Source of the DNA: a virus
Length of the DNA stretch: 38,813 nt
UHGV virus genome: UHGV-0123627
Reading direction: 5' to 3' (one strand)
The translations under genes and the position numbers were made by a program. The stretch's first letter is position 1. Each line of letters begins with the position of its first letter. Positions 3,424 through 38,763 of the stretch are shown one piece after another. The notes under the pieces are model-generated. The model ran no database searches. It was not told the origin of the DNA and saw only the letters and a program-made list of their open reading frames with translations.

Positions 3424-3641
3424 TTCGAACCTCTCTGTTTACTGATAAGTTCCAGATCCTCCTGGCAACTTGCACAAGTCCGACAACCCTGAACGGCCAA
3501 GCGTCTTCGTTCATCTATCGGATCGCCACACTCACAACAATGAGTGGCAGATATAGCCTGGTGGTTCAGGCGGCGCATTTTTATTGCTGTGTTGCGCTGT
3601 AATTCTTCAATTTCTGATGCTGAATCAATGATGTCTGCCAT
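3420..3641 (-). CDS. TraR/DksA-family C4 zinc-finger protein (lambda Orf73-like)
   Basis: 73-aa ORF with C-x2-C...C-x2-C (CCECGDPIDERRRLAVQGCRTCASC), typical of TraR-like phage proteins. Confidence 0.8.
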   Translation of the reverse strand: MADIIDSASEIEELQRNTAIKMRRLNHQAISATHCCECGDPIDERRRLAVQGCRTCASCQEDLELISKQRGSK

Positions 3642-3696
3642 CTTTCATTAATCCCTGAATTGTTGGTTAATACGCTTGAGGGTGAATGCGAATAAT

Positions 3697-3717
3697 AAAA
3701 AAGGAGCCTGTAGCTCC
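3697..3717 (-). terminator. Candidate intrinsic terminator (tL2-like position)
   Basis: Minus strand GGAGC-TACAG-GCTCC followed by TTTTTT. Confidence 0.4.
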
Positions 3718-3739
3718 CTGATGATTTTGCTTTTCATGT

Positions 3740-3955
3740 TTACCGTTCCTTAAAGACGCCGTTCAACATGCCGATCGCCAGGCTTAAATGAGTCGGTGTG
3801 AATCCCATCAGCGTTACCGTTTCGCGGTGCTTCTTCAGTACGCTACGGCAAGTGTCATCGACGTTTTTATCCGGAAACTGCTGTCTGGCTTTTTTGATTT
3901 CAGAATTAGCCTGACGGGCAATGCTGCGAAGGGCGTTTTCCTGCTGAGGTGTCAT
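3740..3955 (-). CDS. Hypothetical early-left operon protein (lambda orf63-like position)
   Basis: Track ORF 3740..4021; the internal ATG at 3955 gives the 71-aa MTPQQENALRSIARQANSEIKK... product. The start is uncertain; the 4021 alternative is not excluded. Confidence 0.5.
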   Translation of the reverse strand: MTPQQENALRSIARQANSEIKKARQQFPDKNVDDTCRSVLKKHRETVTLMGFTPTHLSLAIGMLNGVFKER

Positions 3956-4031
3956 TGAACAAGTCCCATGTCGGCAAGCATAAGCACACAGAATATGAAG
4001 CCCGCTGCCAGAAAAATGCATTCAGTGGTTG

Positions 4032-4223
4032 TCATACCTGGTCTCTCTCATCTGCTTCTGCTTTCGCCACCATCATTTCCAGCTTTTGTGAAAGGGATGT
4101 GGCTAACGTATGAAATTCTTCGTCTGTTTCTACTGGTATTGGCACAAACCTGACTCCAATTTGAGCAAGGCTATGTGCCATCTCAATACTCGTTCTTAAC
4201 TCAACAGGAGATGCTTTGTGCAT
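4032..4223 (-). CDS. Hypothetical early-left operon protein (lambda orf60a-like position)
   Basis: 63-aa ORF with GGGAGG 6 nt upstream of the ATG. Confidence 0.55.
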   Translation of the reverse strand: MHKASPVELRTSIEMAHSLAQIGVRFVPIPVETDEEFHTLATSLSQKLEMMVAKAEADERDQV

Positions 4224-4374
4224 ACCGCCTCCCGTTTATTATTTATCTTCTCAGCCAGCCGCTGTGCTTTCAGTGGATTTCTGATAACAGAAAGGCCGGG
4301 AAATACCCAGCCTCGCTTTGTAACGGAGTAGACGAAAGTGATCGCGCCTACCCGGATATTATCGTGAGGATGCG

Positions 4375-5055
4375 TCATCGCCATTGCTCCCCAAATACAA
4401 AACCAATTTCAGCCAGTGCCTCGTCCATTTTTTCGATGAACTCCGGCACCATCTCGTCAAAACTCGCCATGTACTTTTCATTCCGCTCAATCACGACATA
4501 ATGCAGGCCTTCACGCTTCATGCGCGGGTCATAGTTGGCAAAGTACCAGGCATCTTTTCGCGTCACCCACATGCTGTACTGCACCTGGGCCATGTAAGCC
4601 GACTTTATGGCCTCGAAACCACCGAGCCGGAATTTCATGAAATCCCGGGAGGTAAACGGGCATTTCAGCTCAAGGCCATTGCCGTCACTGCATAAACCAT
4701 CGGGAGAGCAGGCGGTGCGCATACTTTCGTCGCGATAGATGATCGGGGATTCAATAACATTTACGCCGGAAGTGAACTCAAACAGGGTTCTGGCGTCGTT
4801 CTCGTACTGTTTTCCCCAGGCCAGCGCTTTAGCGTTAACTTCCGGAGCCACACCGGTGCAAACCTCAGCTAGCAGGGTGTGGAAGTAGGACATTTTCATG
4901 TCAGGCCACTTCTTTCCTGATCGGGGCTTTGCTATCACGTTGTGAACTTCTGAAGCGGTGATGACGCCGAGCCGTAATTTGTGCCATGCATCATCCCCCT
5001 GTTCGACAGCTCTCACGTCGATCCCGGTACGCTGCAGGATAATGTCCGGTGTCAT
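4375..5055 (-). CDS. exo: Lambda exonuclease (Red-alpha)
   Basis: 226-aa [68 protein letters not shown]... matches lambda Exo. Confidence 0.97.
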
Positions 5056-5837
5056 GCTGCCACCTTCTGCTCAGTGGCTTTCTGTTTCAGGAATCCAAGA
5101 GCTTTCACTGCTTCGGCCTGTGTCAGTTCTGACGATGCGCGAATGTCGCGGCGAAATATCTGGGAACAGAGCGGCAATAAGTCGTCATCCCATGTTTTAT
5201 CCAGGGCGATCAGCAGAGTGTTAATCTCCTGCATGGTTTCATCGTTAACCGGAGTGATATCGCGTTCCGGCTGACGTTCTGCAGTGTATGCAGTATTTTC
5301 GACAATGCGCTCGGCTTCATCCTTGTCATAGATACCAGCAAATCCGAAGGCCAGACGGGCACACTGAATCATGGCTTTATGCCGTAACATCCGTTTGGGA
5401 TGCGACTGCCACGGTCCGGTGATTTCTCTGCCTTCGCGGGTTTTGAATGGTTCGCGGCGGCATTCATCCATCCACTCGGTAACGCAGATCGGATGATTAC
5501 GGTCCTTGCGGTAAATCCGGCATGTGCAGGATTCATTGTCCTGCTCAAAGTCCATGCCATCAAACTGCTGGTTTTCATTGATGATGCGGGACCAGCCATC
5601 AACGCCCACCACCGGAACGATGCCGTTCTGCTTATCAGGGAAGGCGTAAATTTCTTTCGTCCACGGATTAAGGCCGTACTGGTTGGCGACGATCAACAAT
5701 GCGATGAACTGCGCATCGCTGGCATCACCTTTAAATGCCGTCTGGCGAAGAGTGGTGATCAGTTCCTGTGGGTCGACAGAATCCATGCCGACTCGTTCAG
5801 CCAGCTTCCCAGCCAGCGTTGCGAGTGCTGTACTCAT
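5052..5837 (-). CDS. bet: Lambda Bet single-strand annealing protein (Red-beta)
   Basis: 261-aa [69 protein letters not shown]... matches lambda Bet. Confidence 0.97.
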
Positions 5838-5842
5838 CCGTT

Positions 5843-6259
5843 TTATACCTCTGAATCAATATCAACCTGGTGGTGAGCAATGGTTTCAACCATGTACTGG
5901 ATGTGTTCTGCCATGCGCTCCTGAAACTCAACATCGTCATCAAACGCACGGGTAATGGCTTTTTTGCTGGCCCCGTGGCGTTGCAAATGATCGATGCATA
6001 GCGATTCAAACAGGTGCTGGGGCAGGCCTTTTTCCATGTCGTCTGCCAGTTCTGCCTCTTTCTCTTCTCGGGCGATCTGCTGGTAGTGACGCGCCCAGCT
6101 CTGAGCCTCAAGACGATCCTGAATGTAATAAGCGTTCATGGCTGAACTCCTGAAATAGCTGTGAAAATATCGCCCGCGAAATGCCGGGCTGATTAGGAAA
6201 ACAGGAAAGGGGGTTAGTGAATGCTTTTGCTTGATCTCAGTTTCAGTATTAATATCCAT
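5843..6259 (-). CDS. gam: Lambda Gam (RecBCD inhibitor)
   Basis: 138-aa [64 protein letters not shown]... matches lambda Gam (long form). Confidence 0.95.
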
Positions 6260-6357
6260 TTTTTATAAGCGTCGACGGCCTCACGAAACATCTTTTCATC
6301 GCCAATAAAAGTGGCGATAGTGAATTTAGTCTGGATAGCCATAAGTGTTTGATCCAT
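6214..6357 (-). CDS. kil: Kil (host killing / FtsZ inhibitor)
   Basis: Internal ATG of the 89-aa track ORF gives the 47-aa [47 protein letters not shown], matching lambda Kil; overlaps gam and cIII as in lambda. Confidence 0.8.
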
Positions 6358-6490
6358 TTTTTGGGACTCCTGGCTGATTAAGTATGTCGATAAGGCGTTT
6401 CCATCCGTCACGTAATTTACGGGTGATTCGTTCAAGTAAAGATTCGGAAGGGCAGCCAGCAACAGGCCACCCTGCAATGGCATATTGCAT
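6326..6490 (-). CDS. cIII: cIII (FtsH inhibitor, stabilises CII)
   Basis: Manual translation gives the 54-aa [54 protein letters not shown], matching lambda CIII. Below the ORF-track size cutoff. Confidence 0.85.
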   Translation of the reverse strand: MQYAIAGWPVAGCPSESLLERITRKLRDGWKRLIDILNQPGVPKNGSNTYGYPD

Positions 6491-6562
6491 GGTGTGCTCC
6501 TTATTTATACATAACGAAAAACGCCTCGAGTGAAGCGTTATTGGTATGCGGTAACGCCGCGC

Positions 6563-6931
6563 TCAGGCGGCTTTGATAGTCATATCATCTGAATCAAATA
6601 TTCCTGATGTATCGATATCGGTAATTCTTATTCCTTCGCTACCATCCATTGGAGGCCATCCTTCCTGACCATTTCCATCATTCCAGTCGAACTCACACAC
6701 AACACCATATGCATTTAAGTCGCTTGAAATTGCTATAAGCAGAGCATGTTGCGCCAGCATGATTAATACAGCATTTAATACAGAGCCGTGTTTATTGAGT
6801 CGGTATTCAGAGTCTGACCAGAAATTATTAATCTGGTGAAGTTTTTCCTCTGTCATTACGTCATGGTCGATTTCAATTTCTATTGATGCTTTCCAGTCGT
6901 AATCAATGATGTATTTTTTGATGTTTGACAT
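6563..6931 (-). CDS. ea10: Lambda Ea10-like protein
   Basis: 122-aa ORF MSNIKKYIIDYDWKASIEIEIDHDVMTEEKLHQINNFW... at the lambda ea10 position and length. Confidence 0.85.
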   Translation of the reverse strand: MSNIKKYIIDYDWKASIEIEIDHDVMTEEKLHQINNFWSDSEYRLNKHGSVLNAVLIMLAQHALLIAISSDLNAYGVVCEFDWNDGNGQEGWPPMDGSEGIRITDIDTSGIFDSDDMTIKAA

Positions 6932-7134
6932 CTGTTCATATCCTCACAGATAAAAAATCGCCCTCACACTGGAGGGCAAAGAAGATTTCCAATAATCAGA
7001 ACAAGTCGACTCCTGTTTAGTTACGAGCGACATTGCTCCGTGTATTCACTCGTTGGAATGAATACACAGTGCAGTGTTTATTCTGTTATTTATGCCAAAA
7101 ATAAAGGCCACTATCAGGCAGCTTTGTTGTTCTG

Positions 7135-7314
7135 TTAACCAAGTTCTCTGGCAATCATTGCCGTCGTTCGTATTGCCCATTTATCGACATATTTCCCATC
7201 TTCCATTACAGGAAACATTTCTTCAGGCTTAACCATGCATTCCGATTGCAGCTTGCATCCATTGCATCGCTTGAATTGTCCACACCATTGATTTTTATCA
7301 ATAGTCGTAGTCAT
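7135..7314 (-). CDS. ral: Ral (restriction alleviation), C-terminally truncated by an ochre codon at position 60
   Basis: Translation MTTTIDKNQWCGQFKRCNGCKLQSECMVKPEEMFPVMEDGKYVDKWAIRTTAMIARELG then TAA. The in-frame continuation CAG AAC AAC AAA GCT GCC TGA encodes QNNKAA, the C-terminus of 66-aa lambda Ral as remembered. No ORF of 60 aa or more appears in the track here, consistent with truncation. Confidence 0.7.
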   Translation of the reverse strand: MTTTIDKNQWCGQFKRCNGCKLQSECMVKPEEMFPVMEDGKYVDKWAIRTTAMIARELG

Positions 7315-7384
7315 ACGGATAGTCCTGGTATTGTTCCATCACATCCTGAGGATGCTCTTCGAACTCTTCAAATTCTTCTTCCAT
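7298..7384 (-). CDS. Small ORF (28 aa), lambda orf28-like
   Basis: ATG with GAGGTGA upstream; acidic peptide MEEEFEEFEEHPQDVMEQYQDYPYDYDY; overlaps the ral start. Confidence 0.4.
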   Translation of the reverse strand: MEEEFEEFEEHPQDVMEQYQDYPYDYDY

Positions 7385-7438
7385 ATATCACCTCAAATAA
7401 GTTGTTTGCTGCGAAAGTAAATACGCTTAAGTTACCTG

Positions 7439-7576
7439 TTATTTATCCCACCAAGTTCCGTATCTATCTATCCAGTTACACCAATCATCGACACTCCATT
7501 TTGTTGTGTCGCATTTTGGCAACTGGCATGAATATCTACCTTCTTTGTAAAGTCGGCGTTTGACTTTCTTGAGCAT
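7439..7576 (-). CDS. Small Cys-containing ORF (45 aa), hypothetical
   Basis: ATG 8 nt after the N stop with GAGGTG upstream; MLKKVKRRLYKEGRYSCQLPKCDTTKWSVDDWCNWIDRYGTWWDK. Sits where lambda carries sieB. Confidence 0.3.
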   Translation of the reverse strand: MLKKVKRRLYKEGRYSCQLPKCDTTKWSVDDWCNWIDRYGTWWDK

Positions 7577-7584
7577 GGCTCACC

Positions 7585-7917
7585 TCAATCGTAATAAGCT
7601 GGAATTGATTTTCCGCGTTGCTTCTGGCGGCCTGAGCAAGTCACACCCATTTCACAGCGTGGCTTGCTGTACCATGTGCGCTGATTCTTGCGCTCAATAC
7701 GTTGCAGGTTGCTTTCAATCTGTTCGTGGTATTCAGCCAGCACCGTAAGGTCTATCGGATTCAGTGCGCTTTCTACTCGTGATTTCGGTTTGCGATTCAG
7801 CGAGAGAATAGGGCGGTTAACTGGTTTTGCGCTTACCCCAACCAACAGGGGATTTGCTGCTTTCCATTGAGCCTGTTTCTCTGCGCGACGTTCGCGGCGG
7901 CGTGCTTGTGCATCCAT
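7585..7917 (-). CDS. N: Antiterminator N (lambda-like variant)
   Basis: Internal ATG of the track ORF gives MDAQARRRERRAEKQAQWKAANPLLVGVSAKPVNRPILSLNRKPKSRVESALNPIDLTVLAEYH..., with the arginine-rich motif; C-terminus differs from lambda N. Confidence 0.9.
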   Translation of the reverse strand: MDAQARRRERRAEKQAQWKAANPLLVGVSAKPVNRPILSLNRKPKSRVESALNPIDLTVLAEYHEQIESNLQRIERKNQRTWYSKPRCEMGVTCSGRQKQRGKSIPAYYD

Positions 7918-8220: not shown

Positions 8221-9573
<1,353 letters not shown>

Positions 9574-34004: not shown

Positions 34005-34125
34005 CCTTGATGCCTCACCAGTTGGGTGGAATGGCATCGTAACCTACTGGATAAATACTCAATAGTACCATTTCGGTATGCAATCAAATCATGGTTGCAT
34101 CATATCATTCGTCTGGAGCAATGAA

Positions 34126-35931
34126 ATGTCAGATATCACCGCAAATGTTGTGGTAAGCATGCCTTCTCAACTCTTCACTATGGCTCGTTCTTTTAAAGCT
34201 GTAGCCAATGGCAAAATTTATATCGGTAAAATTGACACTGACCCGGTAAATCCTGAAAACCAGATTCAGGTTTATATAGAGAACGAAGACGGTTCTCACG
34301 TTCCTGTTTCGCAACCAATCATCATTAATGCTGCTGGTTACCCCGTATATAACGGACAGATTACCAAGTTCGTAACTGTACAGAATCACTCCATGGCTGT
34401 ATATGATGCGTATGGCGCACAACAATTCTATTATCCTGATCTACTGAAATATTCTCCAGATCAGTTAAGGGCTGAGCTTTCTGGCCCTGATGGCGCATCT
34501 CTGGTTGGTTATGGAGATGAAACTGTCAAAGATGCTCTTGACAATAATGCCCATAAAATAGATACGTTGAGAAGTGACTTGGCTGCTGATGATGGCTTTC
34601 GCCACATAGGCAACTTTCTCAATTTAGATGCGCTGAGGGATTCAATACCATTAGTTGCTGGAGAAATTGTCTATGTAGCTTCAGCAGCAAGTGCTACAGC
34701 AACTGAAAAACATTATGGCGGTGGTTACTTCCAGTCTTTCGACAATAGCACATCACAGATTGCCGATGATGGAGGGATTGTTATTGTTCCAAGTTCAGGT
34801 AAATTTGCTTGGAGGAGGGTTGTTGATGGTGAGATATGGGTAGAGTATTTTGGAGCAAAACCGATAAATGATTTTGACAACGCCTCTGCAATATCAAAGG
34901 CTTTATCATATGGATATGATAATAATACCCCTATTCATTTTATGTCAGGTGAATATCTAACCTCCGAAAGTCCTGTTGTAAAGTCATGGTCTGGAATCAT
35001 AGGTCAAGGTCAAAATAAGACGATTATCTCTAAAACAACAAATAACGCGAACACCATAATTTCTGGAGTCTCAGTGGATGCACTGCTGATTATTCTTCCA
35101 AAAAAATTCGTTGTAGATGGTGTTGAGAGTGATAACTATGCTACAGGCGTAGAGATACAAGGTGTTACTTTAAGACGTCATGAAATTATAGATAGAAATA
35201 ATCAACCAACATATGGAATATACTCTCCTTACATGGCTTCAAGTTTGTTAAGAGACTTGCGTGTAGAATGTGGGTATTATGGTTTTTGGGGTGAAGATTG
35301 CTTCTCAAATATATTTGAACGGTGCGGTTTTTTAGGTTTGGCTATTGGGCAGTTTACTGGTTTTTATTTAGGTAAAGTGAGGGATGGTATATATAACCTT
35401 TCTGGAACAAGTAATCTTCTAGACCAGGTGGGAGTTGTTAATTATCAAATTGGTTTTGAAATTGACGCTCAACAGTACACAACACTAAATTGTTGTACTG
35501 CTGATTCTATATTTCCTATGTCTGGTACTACTGAGACAATATCAAGAGCTTATCTTTTCAATAACCCTCATGGAATAACAATGAATAGTTGTGGAAGTGA
35601 GAATGTAAAGGGGGAAAGAATAGCAGTAGTCCAAGCTTCGCCATCTATTTATGACGGTACAATGGTGATAAATGGATGTCAATTTCAGGTTGTCCCAGCA
35701 AATCCACCAATTTCTTTGCCAATATTTAGGTTTGAGAACAATGGCACAAATTCATTTAATTTGTACATAACAGTAAATTCATCTAACTTTCGTCGAGATT
35801 CTTCTACAACACCAAACCTAATTCAAGGATATGTTTATGGTGGTACTGGCGCTGTCACAGTCGTAAGATTCATAGCATCTGTTCTTGAAGATCCGATAAC
35901 GGCAGGAAATGTAGATGTTAAACTAATTTAG
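34126..35931 (+). CDS. Tailspike protein (P22 gp9-like head-binding domain, divergent receptor-binding domain)
   Basis: [79 protein letters not shown]... matches the P22 tailspike N-terminal domain; the rest is dissimilar; GGAG 7 nt upstream. Confidence 0.9.
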
Positions 35932-36027: not shown

Positions 36028-37488
36028 TTATTTACATAAAGAATCATCAAAACTCACCATTACATTCTCATTATCACGATAAATTTTAATATCATTAGAT
36101 GAATAAATTAGTGTTGATTTACAATAGTCCTTCATGAACATAGATACTTCTTTACTGGAAAAATCAGGATAATTTTGATTTACTCCTCTAATCTTGAGGT
36201 ATACATGAGAGCCATACCAGTTATAGAAGTAGTCGAGTACTATTGTTTTGAATAGTGGATAATTTAATTCTGAATTAAGTAGTATAGGGGATTTTGGTGA
36301 ACTACCATTAAACATAACATTAACACTATTTTCGGGTATGTTTTTTAACGCTAGCCCAATAATTTCAGCAATGTATTTATTTTTATCATCTTGTGCTCGC
36401 AAAGCATTTCCATATGAATAAAAAAGAGTAATTATATAAAAAAGGAATATTAAAAATATACCGTTGACAATTCTTGTGTTATTTATTCCCAAATATAAAA
36501 GGGTGAAGATGAATAAAAAAAGACCATTAAACCCAATATAAACCCTTGCAAAAGTTGTTAGAGTGTTTTCAAGGAGAAGTAATGAAATCATTGATGATAT
36601 AAAAGTCAAAGGTAATGATAACACTGCCATCAAAGATAAAAAAACAGCAGCATTACACTTGTGTTTTTTAATGTAAACAAAAACCAATTTAATGGCAAAT
36701 GCAAATGATACAATAAAACTACCAATTAATAATTCACTCCCATGCTCAGGGATTATATTTCTAGTGTAGAAATCATAATACGCAATAAAGTTCTTATGAA
36801 TTACATCTATAATATTTGTGGCAACTCCTGGGTGATTTTGACTATTGTCATTAACATGAGTTAACGGCAGTACAACCCTCATATAGATAACAGCGCCAAC
36901 CAATACTTCGATAATTCGAAATGCAATTGACTTTATTATGTGTGTTGGCTCTTTATTATTCTTTATGTTAACAAACATTTCTATAGAGATTAATATAAAA
37001 ACTATATTAATAGATGCTTGGTAAAATGAAAATAAGATAACTATAAAGCTAGAATGTAAAATAAATGAAATTACCGTGTTTTTATAGTTTAGACAAATAA
37101 ATGCAAATGCAAAAAATATCGAAGCTGAGATGGTTAAGCTATCAAACCTGTATGATAGAGGTTCGATTATAAATGGACTTAATAAAAATGACAACGGTAA
37201 AAAAAGATAATGATTATCTGAATTAAATAATTTAATGTGAAATAGATAAAATGAAATAGACAATAGCAAACATGCTATTATTAGAGGCAATGGAGCCAAG
37301 TCAGTTAGATGATTGTTAAAATTAAGAATAATCATTAATCTATCTGATAATGGTCTACCATCAATTCCCCAATAAGTTACGCCGCTCATTGCTCTGCTCA
37401 TATCATCGCTGTAGTAAACATTTGCAATTATAATTGGGAGCGCAAGTAAGAATGTGATAAATAAGTAAATCTTAATGTTATTTTTCAT
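36028..37488 (-). CDS. Serotype-specific O-antigen glucosyltransferase (GtrC-type polytopic membrane protein)
   Basis: 486-aa very hydrophobic multi-TM protein in AT-rich DNA, directly downstream of gtrB in the same operon. Confidence 0.75.
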
Positions 37489-38404
37489 TTTTAGAACTCT
37501 TTAAAAGATATTTCGGCCTTTGCTTTGTTTCAATATAAATTCGTCCAATGTACTCACCAAGAACACCAATACCAATGAGTTGGATACCACCAAGGAAAAG
37601 TATAGATACTAGCAGGGATGGATAACCTCTAACCGGGTTTCCAAACGCCAGAGTGTCCAGAATCATCCATGCGCCATATGTAAATGCTAAGCCAGCGACG
37701 AGAAGGCCGATGTAAGTCCACATACGTAGCGGAAAAGTCGAGAAGCTCGTAATTCCCTCAAGAGCAAGATTCCACAACTTCCATCCGTTGAACTTGGTAC
37801 TGCCAGCAACACGTTCTGCGCGGGCATAATCAACGATATCAGTGCGACCACCAACCCAACTCAAAACACCCTTCATGAAAAGGTTGCGTTCTGGCATGAG
37901 CTTAATGTTCTCTACGACTTCACGAGACATCAGACGGAAATCACCAACATTTTCCTCGATCTGCGGATTGCTGATTTTATTGTGAAGCTTATAGAACCAC
38001 TCGGCGGTTTTCCTCTTCAGTCTGCCATCCGTTGAGCGGTCAGATCGTTTAGCAAGCACCATATCAGCACCTGCCTGCCACTTTTCAATAAGATGAGGAA
38101 TAACCTCAATCGGGTCTTGCAGGTCAACATCAATTGGAATCACGGCATCGCCAGTTGCATGGTCTAACCCTGCAAACAATGCTGGTTCTTTACCAAAGTT
38201 GCGTGTAAATGACAGCGGAACAACTAGCGGATCATAAACAGCCAGAGCGTTAATGATTGACTCCGTAGAGTCTTTGCTACCATCATTTATAAAAACAATT
38301 TCTACTTCATATGGCTTCAACTCTTCGAATTCACGTACCGTTTTATAAAAAATTGGTATCGCTTCTTCTTCATTGAAGACAGGAACTACAAGAGATATCT
38401 TCAT
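37478..38404 (-). CDS. gtrB: Bactoprenol glucosyltransferase GtrB (GT2 family)
   Basis: 308-aa [47 protein letters not shown]... with two C-terminal TM segments. Confidence 0.95.
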
Positions 38405-38763
38405 TTCGCATCCCTAAAGACAATGAACTTTGAATAGACGAAACCGCACACCAGGCTGATGGCGGAGAAAGTGATAAGGGTGACCATCGGGGGAAGGGCG
38501 CATCTATCAGCAGCCCACCCGACGACAACACTCAATGTTCCCATGAATCCCACGTATAACAAGTAACGCATCGTTGTAGTCGATGCCTTGAATGTGAATT
38601 TTGCATTCGCGAAGAAGCTAAAACTCACAGCCACAACGAAACCTGCGAAGTTTGCAAGAGCTTGGTTTGTATGCGCGGCATAGATACAAACACCAAAAAC
38701 CACCCAGTGTATAAGGGTGTTCAGCACACCAATCGAGGTGTACTTTGCAAATAGCTTTAACAT
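38401..38763 (-). CDS. gtrA: GtrA flippase-like small membrane protein
   Basis: 120-aa four-TM protein [31 protein letters not shown]... ending in ...FIVFRDAK; first gene of the gtr operon. Confidence 0.9.

Follow-up and report, generated by a model that had tools for sequence, protein, structure and literature searches.

The 38,813-nt stretch of viral DNA analyzed here (UHGV virus genome UHGV-0123627, hereafter the window) carries a ral gene that ends seven codons earlier than its phage lambda counterpart, and it raises the question of whether this early stop is an error, a sign of decay or a natural allele whose short product is still active. Ral acts on the EcoKI family of type IA enzymes, whose methyltransferase it switches from maintenance to de novo activity, and unmodified phage DNA is then methylated and not cut (PMC3874165; PMC12707154; bioRxiv 10.1101/2023.04.06.535777). 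Alleviation of type IA (EcoKI/EcoBI) restriction is known for the 66-aa lambda Ral (PMC3874165), and the ral gene is non-essential (Zabeau 1980, cited in PMC12707154).

The gene occupies positions 7135..7314 of the window on the minus strand, with its ATG at 7314..7312 and its TAA at 7137..7135. Read from 7314 to 7135, the sequence runs from ATG to GGT TAA and encodes residues 1-59 of lambda Ral; the 59-aa product, MTTTIDKNQWCGQFKRCNGCKLQSECMVKPEEMFPVMEDGKYVDKWAIRTTAMIARELG, belongs to the Pfam family PF11058 (Ral) and ends in ...ARELG. Behind the TAA, the codons CAG AAC AAC AAA GCT GCC TGA follow in frame (7134..7114, minus strand). These are the orphaned 3' end of the gene, QNNKAA and the ancestral TGA, which is the same as in lambda and is now untranslated. 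The lambda reference gene (NC_001416 34087-34287) has 201 nt and encodes 66 aa. In a six-way DNA alignment of ral from the window, lambda, phage 21, Sf6, SfI and phi458, the sole intragenic change relative to lambda and phage 21 is an A to T at the first base of codon 60, window position 7137, and codon 60 is AAA (Lys60) in lambda, phage 21 and Sf6. The initial annotation had described a lambda-type ral with an ochre at codon 60, had given lambda Ral as a 66-aa protein with AAA at that codon and had proposed that one A-to-T change would suffice for the stop. The open reading frame and the alignment with lambda bear out the first statement, NC_001416 the second, and the third agrees with this change being the only intragenic difference from lambda. 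The same annotation allowed that lambda itself might have TAA at this codon, which it does not.

The A-to-T change also creates the palindrome GTTAAC, a HpaI/HincII site, at window positions 7134-7139, where lambda has no such site. It is a usable restriction marker to type the TAA allele, and its biological meaning is not apparent. No EcoKI (AAC N6 GTGC) or EcoBI (TGA N8 TGCT) site newly made by the change was seen by eye.

The genes around ral are those of a leftward early (pL) operon. The antiterminator N gene (7585..7917, minus strand), which encodes a 110-aa protein of the Sf6/SfI type, and an ea10 homologue (DUF2528; 6563..6931, minus strand) lie on the same strand as ral with ral between them, and the order N-ral-ea10 is common to the window, lambda, 21, Sf6 and SfI. 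The slot between N and ral that is held by sieB in lambda is filled in the window by a gene for a 45-aa DUF5484 protein like Sf6 gene 36 (7439..7576, minus strand), and a 28-codon homologue of lambda orf28 (lambdap47) without a family match (7298..7384, minus strand) overlaps the ral start. Polarity or a loss of translational coupling was considered as a consequence of the TAA and was ruled out by inspection: the stop should have no polar effect because only 21 nt are lost from translation and ea10, the next gene downstream, starts 183 nt beyond the old TGA.

The window as a whole, judged from its gene content, is an intact-looking P22/Sf6-type temperate phage genome in prophage order. It has a lambda-type integrase gene (50-1120), a LexA-like repressor and Sf6/P22-type replication and morphogenesis genes, and its full-length open reading frames include exo (226 aa), bet (261 aa), gam (138 aa), int, the repressor, terminase, portal, coat and tailspike. 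The P22-type tailspike gene (34078-35931, plus strand), which has a head-binding domain and a weak pectate-lyase-like match, adjoins a gtr cassette for O-antigen modification (36028-38763, minus strand) that consists of gtrA (120 aa), gtrB (308 aa) and a gene for a GtrII-type glucosyltransferase (486 aa); this is probably a serotype-converting element, as SfI and Sf6 are. The genome is a mosaic. The int-to-nin region (1 to about 17088) is about 98% identical, in patches, to lambda/434 and the morphogenesis genes are Sf6/Gally/IME10-like (94-98%), and the best phage record covers at most 52-55% of either window part searched. The end of the repressor gene is overlapped by a 158-codon open reading frame (8221-8697, minus strand) that follows directly downstream, in the slot of lambda rexA/rexB, and that may encode an exclusion or defence function of the prophage. 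The 134-aa gene just downstream of a 210-aa repressor gene in a related locus (L009) gave no hit in Pfam.

The TAA allele is not confined to the window. Among isolated phages, SfI and phi458 carry it with the same 201 nt, and the phage collection has no other carriers; in the SfI record the gene appears as a 180-nt 'restriction alleviation ral', with a 59-aa Ral as its product. Complete E. coli genomes were counted with allele-specific 32-mers, designed so that no 28-base megablast seed word could miss the variant base. In these 5,426 genomes, TAA is present in 64 (66 places) and AAA in 744 (776 places), and the corresponding numbers of IMG/VR contigs are 28 and at least 120. At least 1,000 contigs carry the exact 59-aa protein, and it is present in 5,191 index blocks. 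Its record is named 'MULTISPECIES: antirestriction Ral family protein [Enterobacteriaceae]', and PGAP calls the 59-aa form as a normal CDS, WP_000213971.1. An exact-pattern scan of the GTDB species-representative genomes, which hold one genome per species, gave 0 hits for the allele. The stop had at first been taken as a peculiarity of this sequence, but it is a common allele that was already known, since it is annotated in the published SfI genome and its protein has a separate RefSeq entry. Full-text searches of the literature turned up no paper that deals with the C-terminus of Ral, with truncated Ral proteins or with the allele of SfI. The early stop is real and a natural variant; it is an ordinary polymorphism and not an error, and it does not indicate prophage decay.

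To follow the history of the allele, ral was extracted from the window and from every fetched locus with a match to a fixed 21-nt intragenic anchor. This gave 161 copies, and in 41 TAA and 106 AAA copies the 5' part is colinear with the reference. Downstream of the stop, the lambda-type pair C186/A192 is present in all 41 TAA copies and in 45 of the 106 AAA copies (Fisher p=2e-12); the remaining AAA copies have T186 and/or G192. This linkage points to one origin for the TAA alleles, namely a single mutation on a lambda-type 3' end. The 5' part of the gene displays a more complicated pattern. The TAA copies have 5' haplotypes that include A21G, C78T, A21G+G111A and A20C+G45A+A114G, among others, and most of these variants also occur with AAA, as would be expected if recombination had reshuffled ral.

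The surroundings of the allele are varied as well. In ten TAA carriers with 6-kb flanks, the repressor/Cro types differ, N has 90, 107 or 110 aa, sieB is present or absent, two kinds of integrase are found, and the chromosomal neighbours and insertion sites vary. The carriers match the window over the xis-to-ral module (about 3446-7409, 97-99% identity), and the homology ends at mosaic junctions that lie some 100 nt upstream of ral. We suggest that the change of AAA (Lys60) to TAA arose once, on a lambda-type ral, and that homologous recombination would then have carried the TAA ral into many lambdoid and P22-like prophages in E. coli and in Shigella.

What the truncation removes can be judged from the family. 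The 59-aa form matches PF11058 with 148.3 bits (cut-off 25; E=4.4e-44), compared to 162.5 bits for the full 66-aa Ral; the match covers profile positions 1-59 of 66, and the last seven, which make up the non-conserved tail, are absent. No NCBIfam model matches either form. Across 32 aligned Ral proteins (65-100% identity), invariance is seen at C11, C17, C20, L22, C26, M27, P30, D44, W46, A47, R49, T50, T51, M53, I54, R56 and L58; the near-invariant columns end with E57. Checked against these columns, the 59-aa protein has C11, C17, C20, C26, P30, D44, W46, A47, R49, T50, T51, M53, I54, R56 and L58. Beyond L58, the homologues have tails of 3-9 residues with no conserved sequence; the Pantoea and Erwinia proteins stop three residues past L58, with ...RELAAM or ...RELAAK. 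As the conserved columns stop at L58, the ochre costs just the variable tail. The window Ral has a single residue after L58, and this is the shortest tail, the minimum among the aligned homologues being three.

The four invariant cysteines are spaced CX5CX2CX5C (C11, C17, C20, C26), a pattern that is seemingly undiscussed in the papers found and that suggests a small metal-binding knuckle. One 59-aa variant (protein P0007), which is present on 19 contigs, has K7T together with C26Y and so has lost an invariant cysteine. The PDB holds no solved Ral structure. An AlphaFold2 model built on the 32-sequence alignment is of low confidence (mean pLDDT 67.5, pTM 0.38) and has a C-terminal helix over residues 45-65, with a confidence of 78 over residues 51-60 that drops to 64 over residues 61-66.

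Taking these observations together, we predict, with a probability of roughly 60%, that the TAA allele is a natural nonsense polymorphism of single origin that was spread by recombination and that its product, Ral59, is active, possibly in an altered manner. The 59-residue protein has kept the four invariant cysteines and the invariant W46-L58 stretch and has lost the variable C-terminal tail alone. Because every family-conserved residue is present, the short Ral would presumably still do the job of Ral, perhaps with altered potency or stability.

The main competitor, which is possible although we consider it the less probable reading, is that the ochre is a loss-of-function allele or a strong hypomorph that persists or hitch-hikes because ral is dispensable and rarely selected in a resident prophage. 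This reading gains from a second ral allele, a frameshifting internal deletion of 103 nt (ral nt ~38-140) between short direct repeats TGG(A/G)CAAT. The deletion allele is certainly null, and it is comparably frequent, with 34 of the 5,426 complete E. coli genomes against 64 for TAA; it is also present in 13 of 119 AAA-pattern IMG/VR loci among the matches listed (L055, L078, L080, L090, L103, L112, L119 and six other loci). Since a certainly null deletion is nearly as common as TAA, allele frequency is no proof of function, and we dropped it as evidence of function.

Other observations also lean toward a null or weakened protein. In codons 61-66 of the 66-aa alleles, synonymous variants occur in 83 copies and non-synonymous ones in 9, which hints that the tail amino acids are maintained in the 66-aa lineage, although the copies are not independent. 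Residues 60-65 lie within the helix of the weak AlphaFold2 model, and the truncation would shorten it; the one-residue tail is unmatched by any natural homologue aligned. A further stop (G19*) is present in one of the TAA copies, and the C26Y change described above sits in a 59-aa protein. However, C26Y is found in AAA alleles too, and secondary lesions are not in excess: 40 of the 41 TAA copies and 102 of the 106 AAA copies are otherwise intact, which leaves 1/41 against 4/106 with a lesion. Furthermore, the invariant residues are all kept, no part of the family is less conserved than the lost segment, and the allele rides on isolated phages and on intact-looking prophages.

Similar evidence bears on the suggestion of the initial annotation that ral is a decaying gene in a prophage. 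The window looks like an intact P22/Sf6-type prophage, and so a decay reading is unsupported; the phage open reading frames are full-length, SfI and phi458 carry the allele, and all TAA copies but one are free of a further lesion. Lost conserved sequence, additional lesions and a degraded element, which would mark a pseudogene, do not describe the TAA ral. PGAP makes the same distinction, as it leaves the TAA allele unflagged and flags the 103-nt deletion allele as frameshifted; an example of the latter is E. coli NZ_CP021175.1 2965307-2965404 (L165 680-777), which PGAP annotates as a frameshifted pseudogene.

The opposite idea, that the truncation is advantageous, we regard as improbable. It supposes that the short protein has lost an ...AA turnover signal, which would stabilize Ral, or that the loss shifts the host enzymes or sensors that Ral meets. 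The C-terminus is AA, or AA plus one residue, in 20 of 31 Ral homologues, an observation that is seemingly undiscussed in the papers found. Such ends resemble the C-terminal degrons of the ssrA type. The spread of the allele on to many backgrounds would also fit an advantage. However, the argument is purely inferential, a frequency of about 8% and a single origin give no sign of a sweep, the null allele is about as frequent, and Ral set off no cell-death system in a screen of the ECOR strains (bioRxiv 10.1101/2023.04.06.535777). It is equally improbable, in our opinion, that the tail is a proteolytic turnover or regulatory signal and that the TAA form, longer-lived or differently regulated, has been selected in a minority of lambdoid prophages. 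Finally, a sequencing or assembly error at about position 7137, which the initial annotation had raised and which would need just a single wrong base, has a negligible chance of being correct, because independent records have the identical allele (the phages SfI and phi458, 64 complete E. coli genomes, 28 IMG/VR contigs and thousands of index blocks) and the TAA base is found on at least four nucleotide haplotypes.

The TAA ral is then a genuine, catalogued polymorphism that matters little in itself. The 66-aa and 59-aa proteins are nevertheless a natural pair, one base apart, for asking whether the C-terminal tail matters. Annotations should retain the 59-aa form as a CDS; the true ral pseudogene is the form with the 103-nt deletion.

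The closest known system is SfI. Its Ral (YP_009147488.1, 59 aa) is identical to WP_000213971.1, and all 201 nt are the same as in the window, the TAA and the orphaned tail included. Upstream of ral, SfI also has the same genes as the window, the orf28 homologue, the DUF5484 gene and an Sf6-type N. However, SfI departs from the window elsewhere in the genome, and so the window is not SfI itself. Lambda Ral (P03702 / NP_040622.1, 66 aa) is the same as the window protein over residues 1-59, and the pL position and the downstream DNA are the same as well; it differs in that it goes on from AAA (Lys60) with KQNNKAA, the seven residues missing from the window protein. Phage 21 Ral has the same protein sequence as lambda Ral.

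Short Ral homologues are also known from other hosts, including those of Pantoea agglomerans (P0066) and Erwinia (P0073), which have 59 aa, and Salmonella/P22-type proteins (P0051, P0057 and P0067), which have 64 aa. Over the alignment, their identity to lambda Ral is 66-72%. They have the W46-L58 block as well as the four-cysteine motif, and their tails are evidence that both a short length and another sequence are allowed there. However, their length comes partly from N-terminal gaps, and they have 3-6 residues after L58 compared to one in the window. A more distant case is Lar/RalR of the Rac prophage, which is reported to provide Ral-like restriction alleviation and enhanced modification (King and Murray 1995, cited in PMC4041452). 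It is only 24% identical to Ral, is considered unrelated and was later described as the toxin, a DNase, in a type I toxin-antitoxin pair (PMC4041452). Lar/RalR is outside PF11058.
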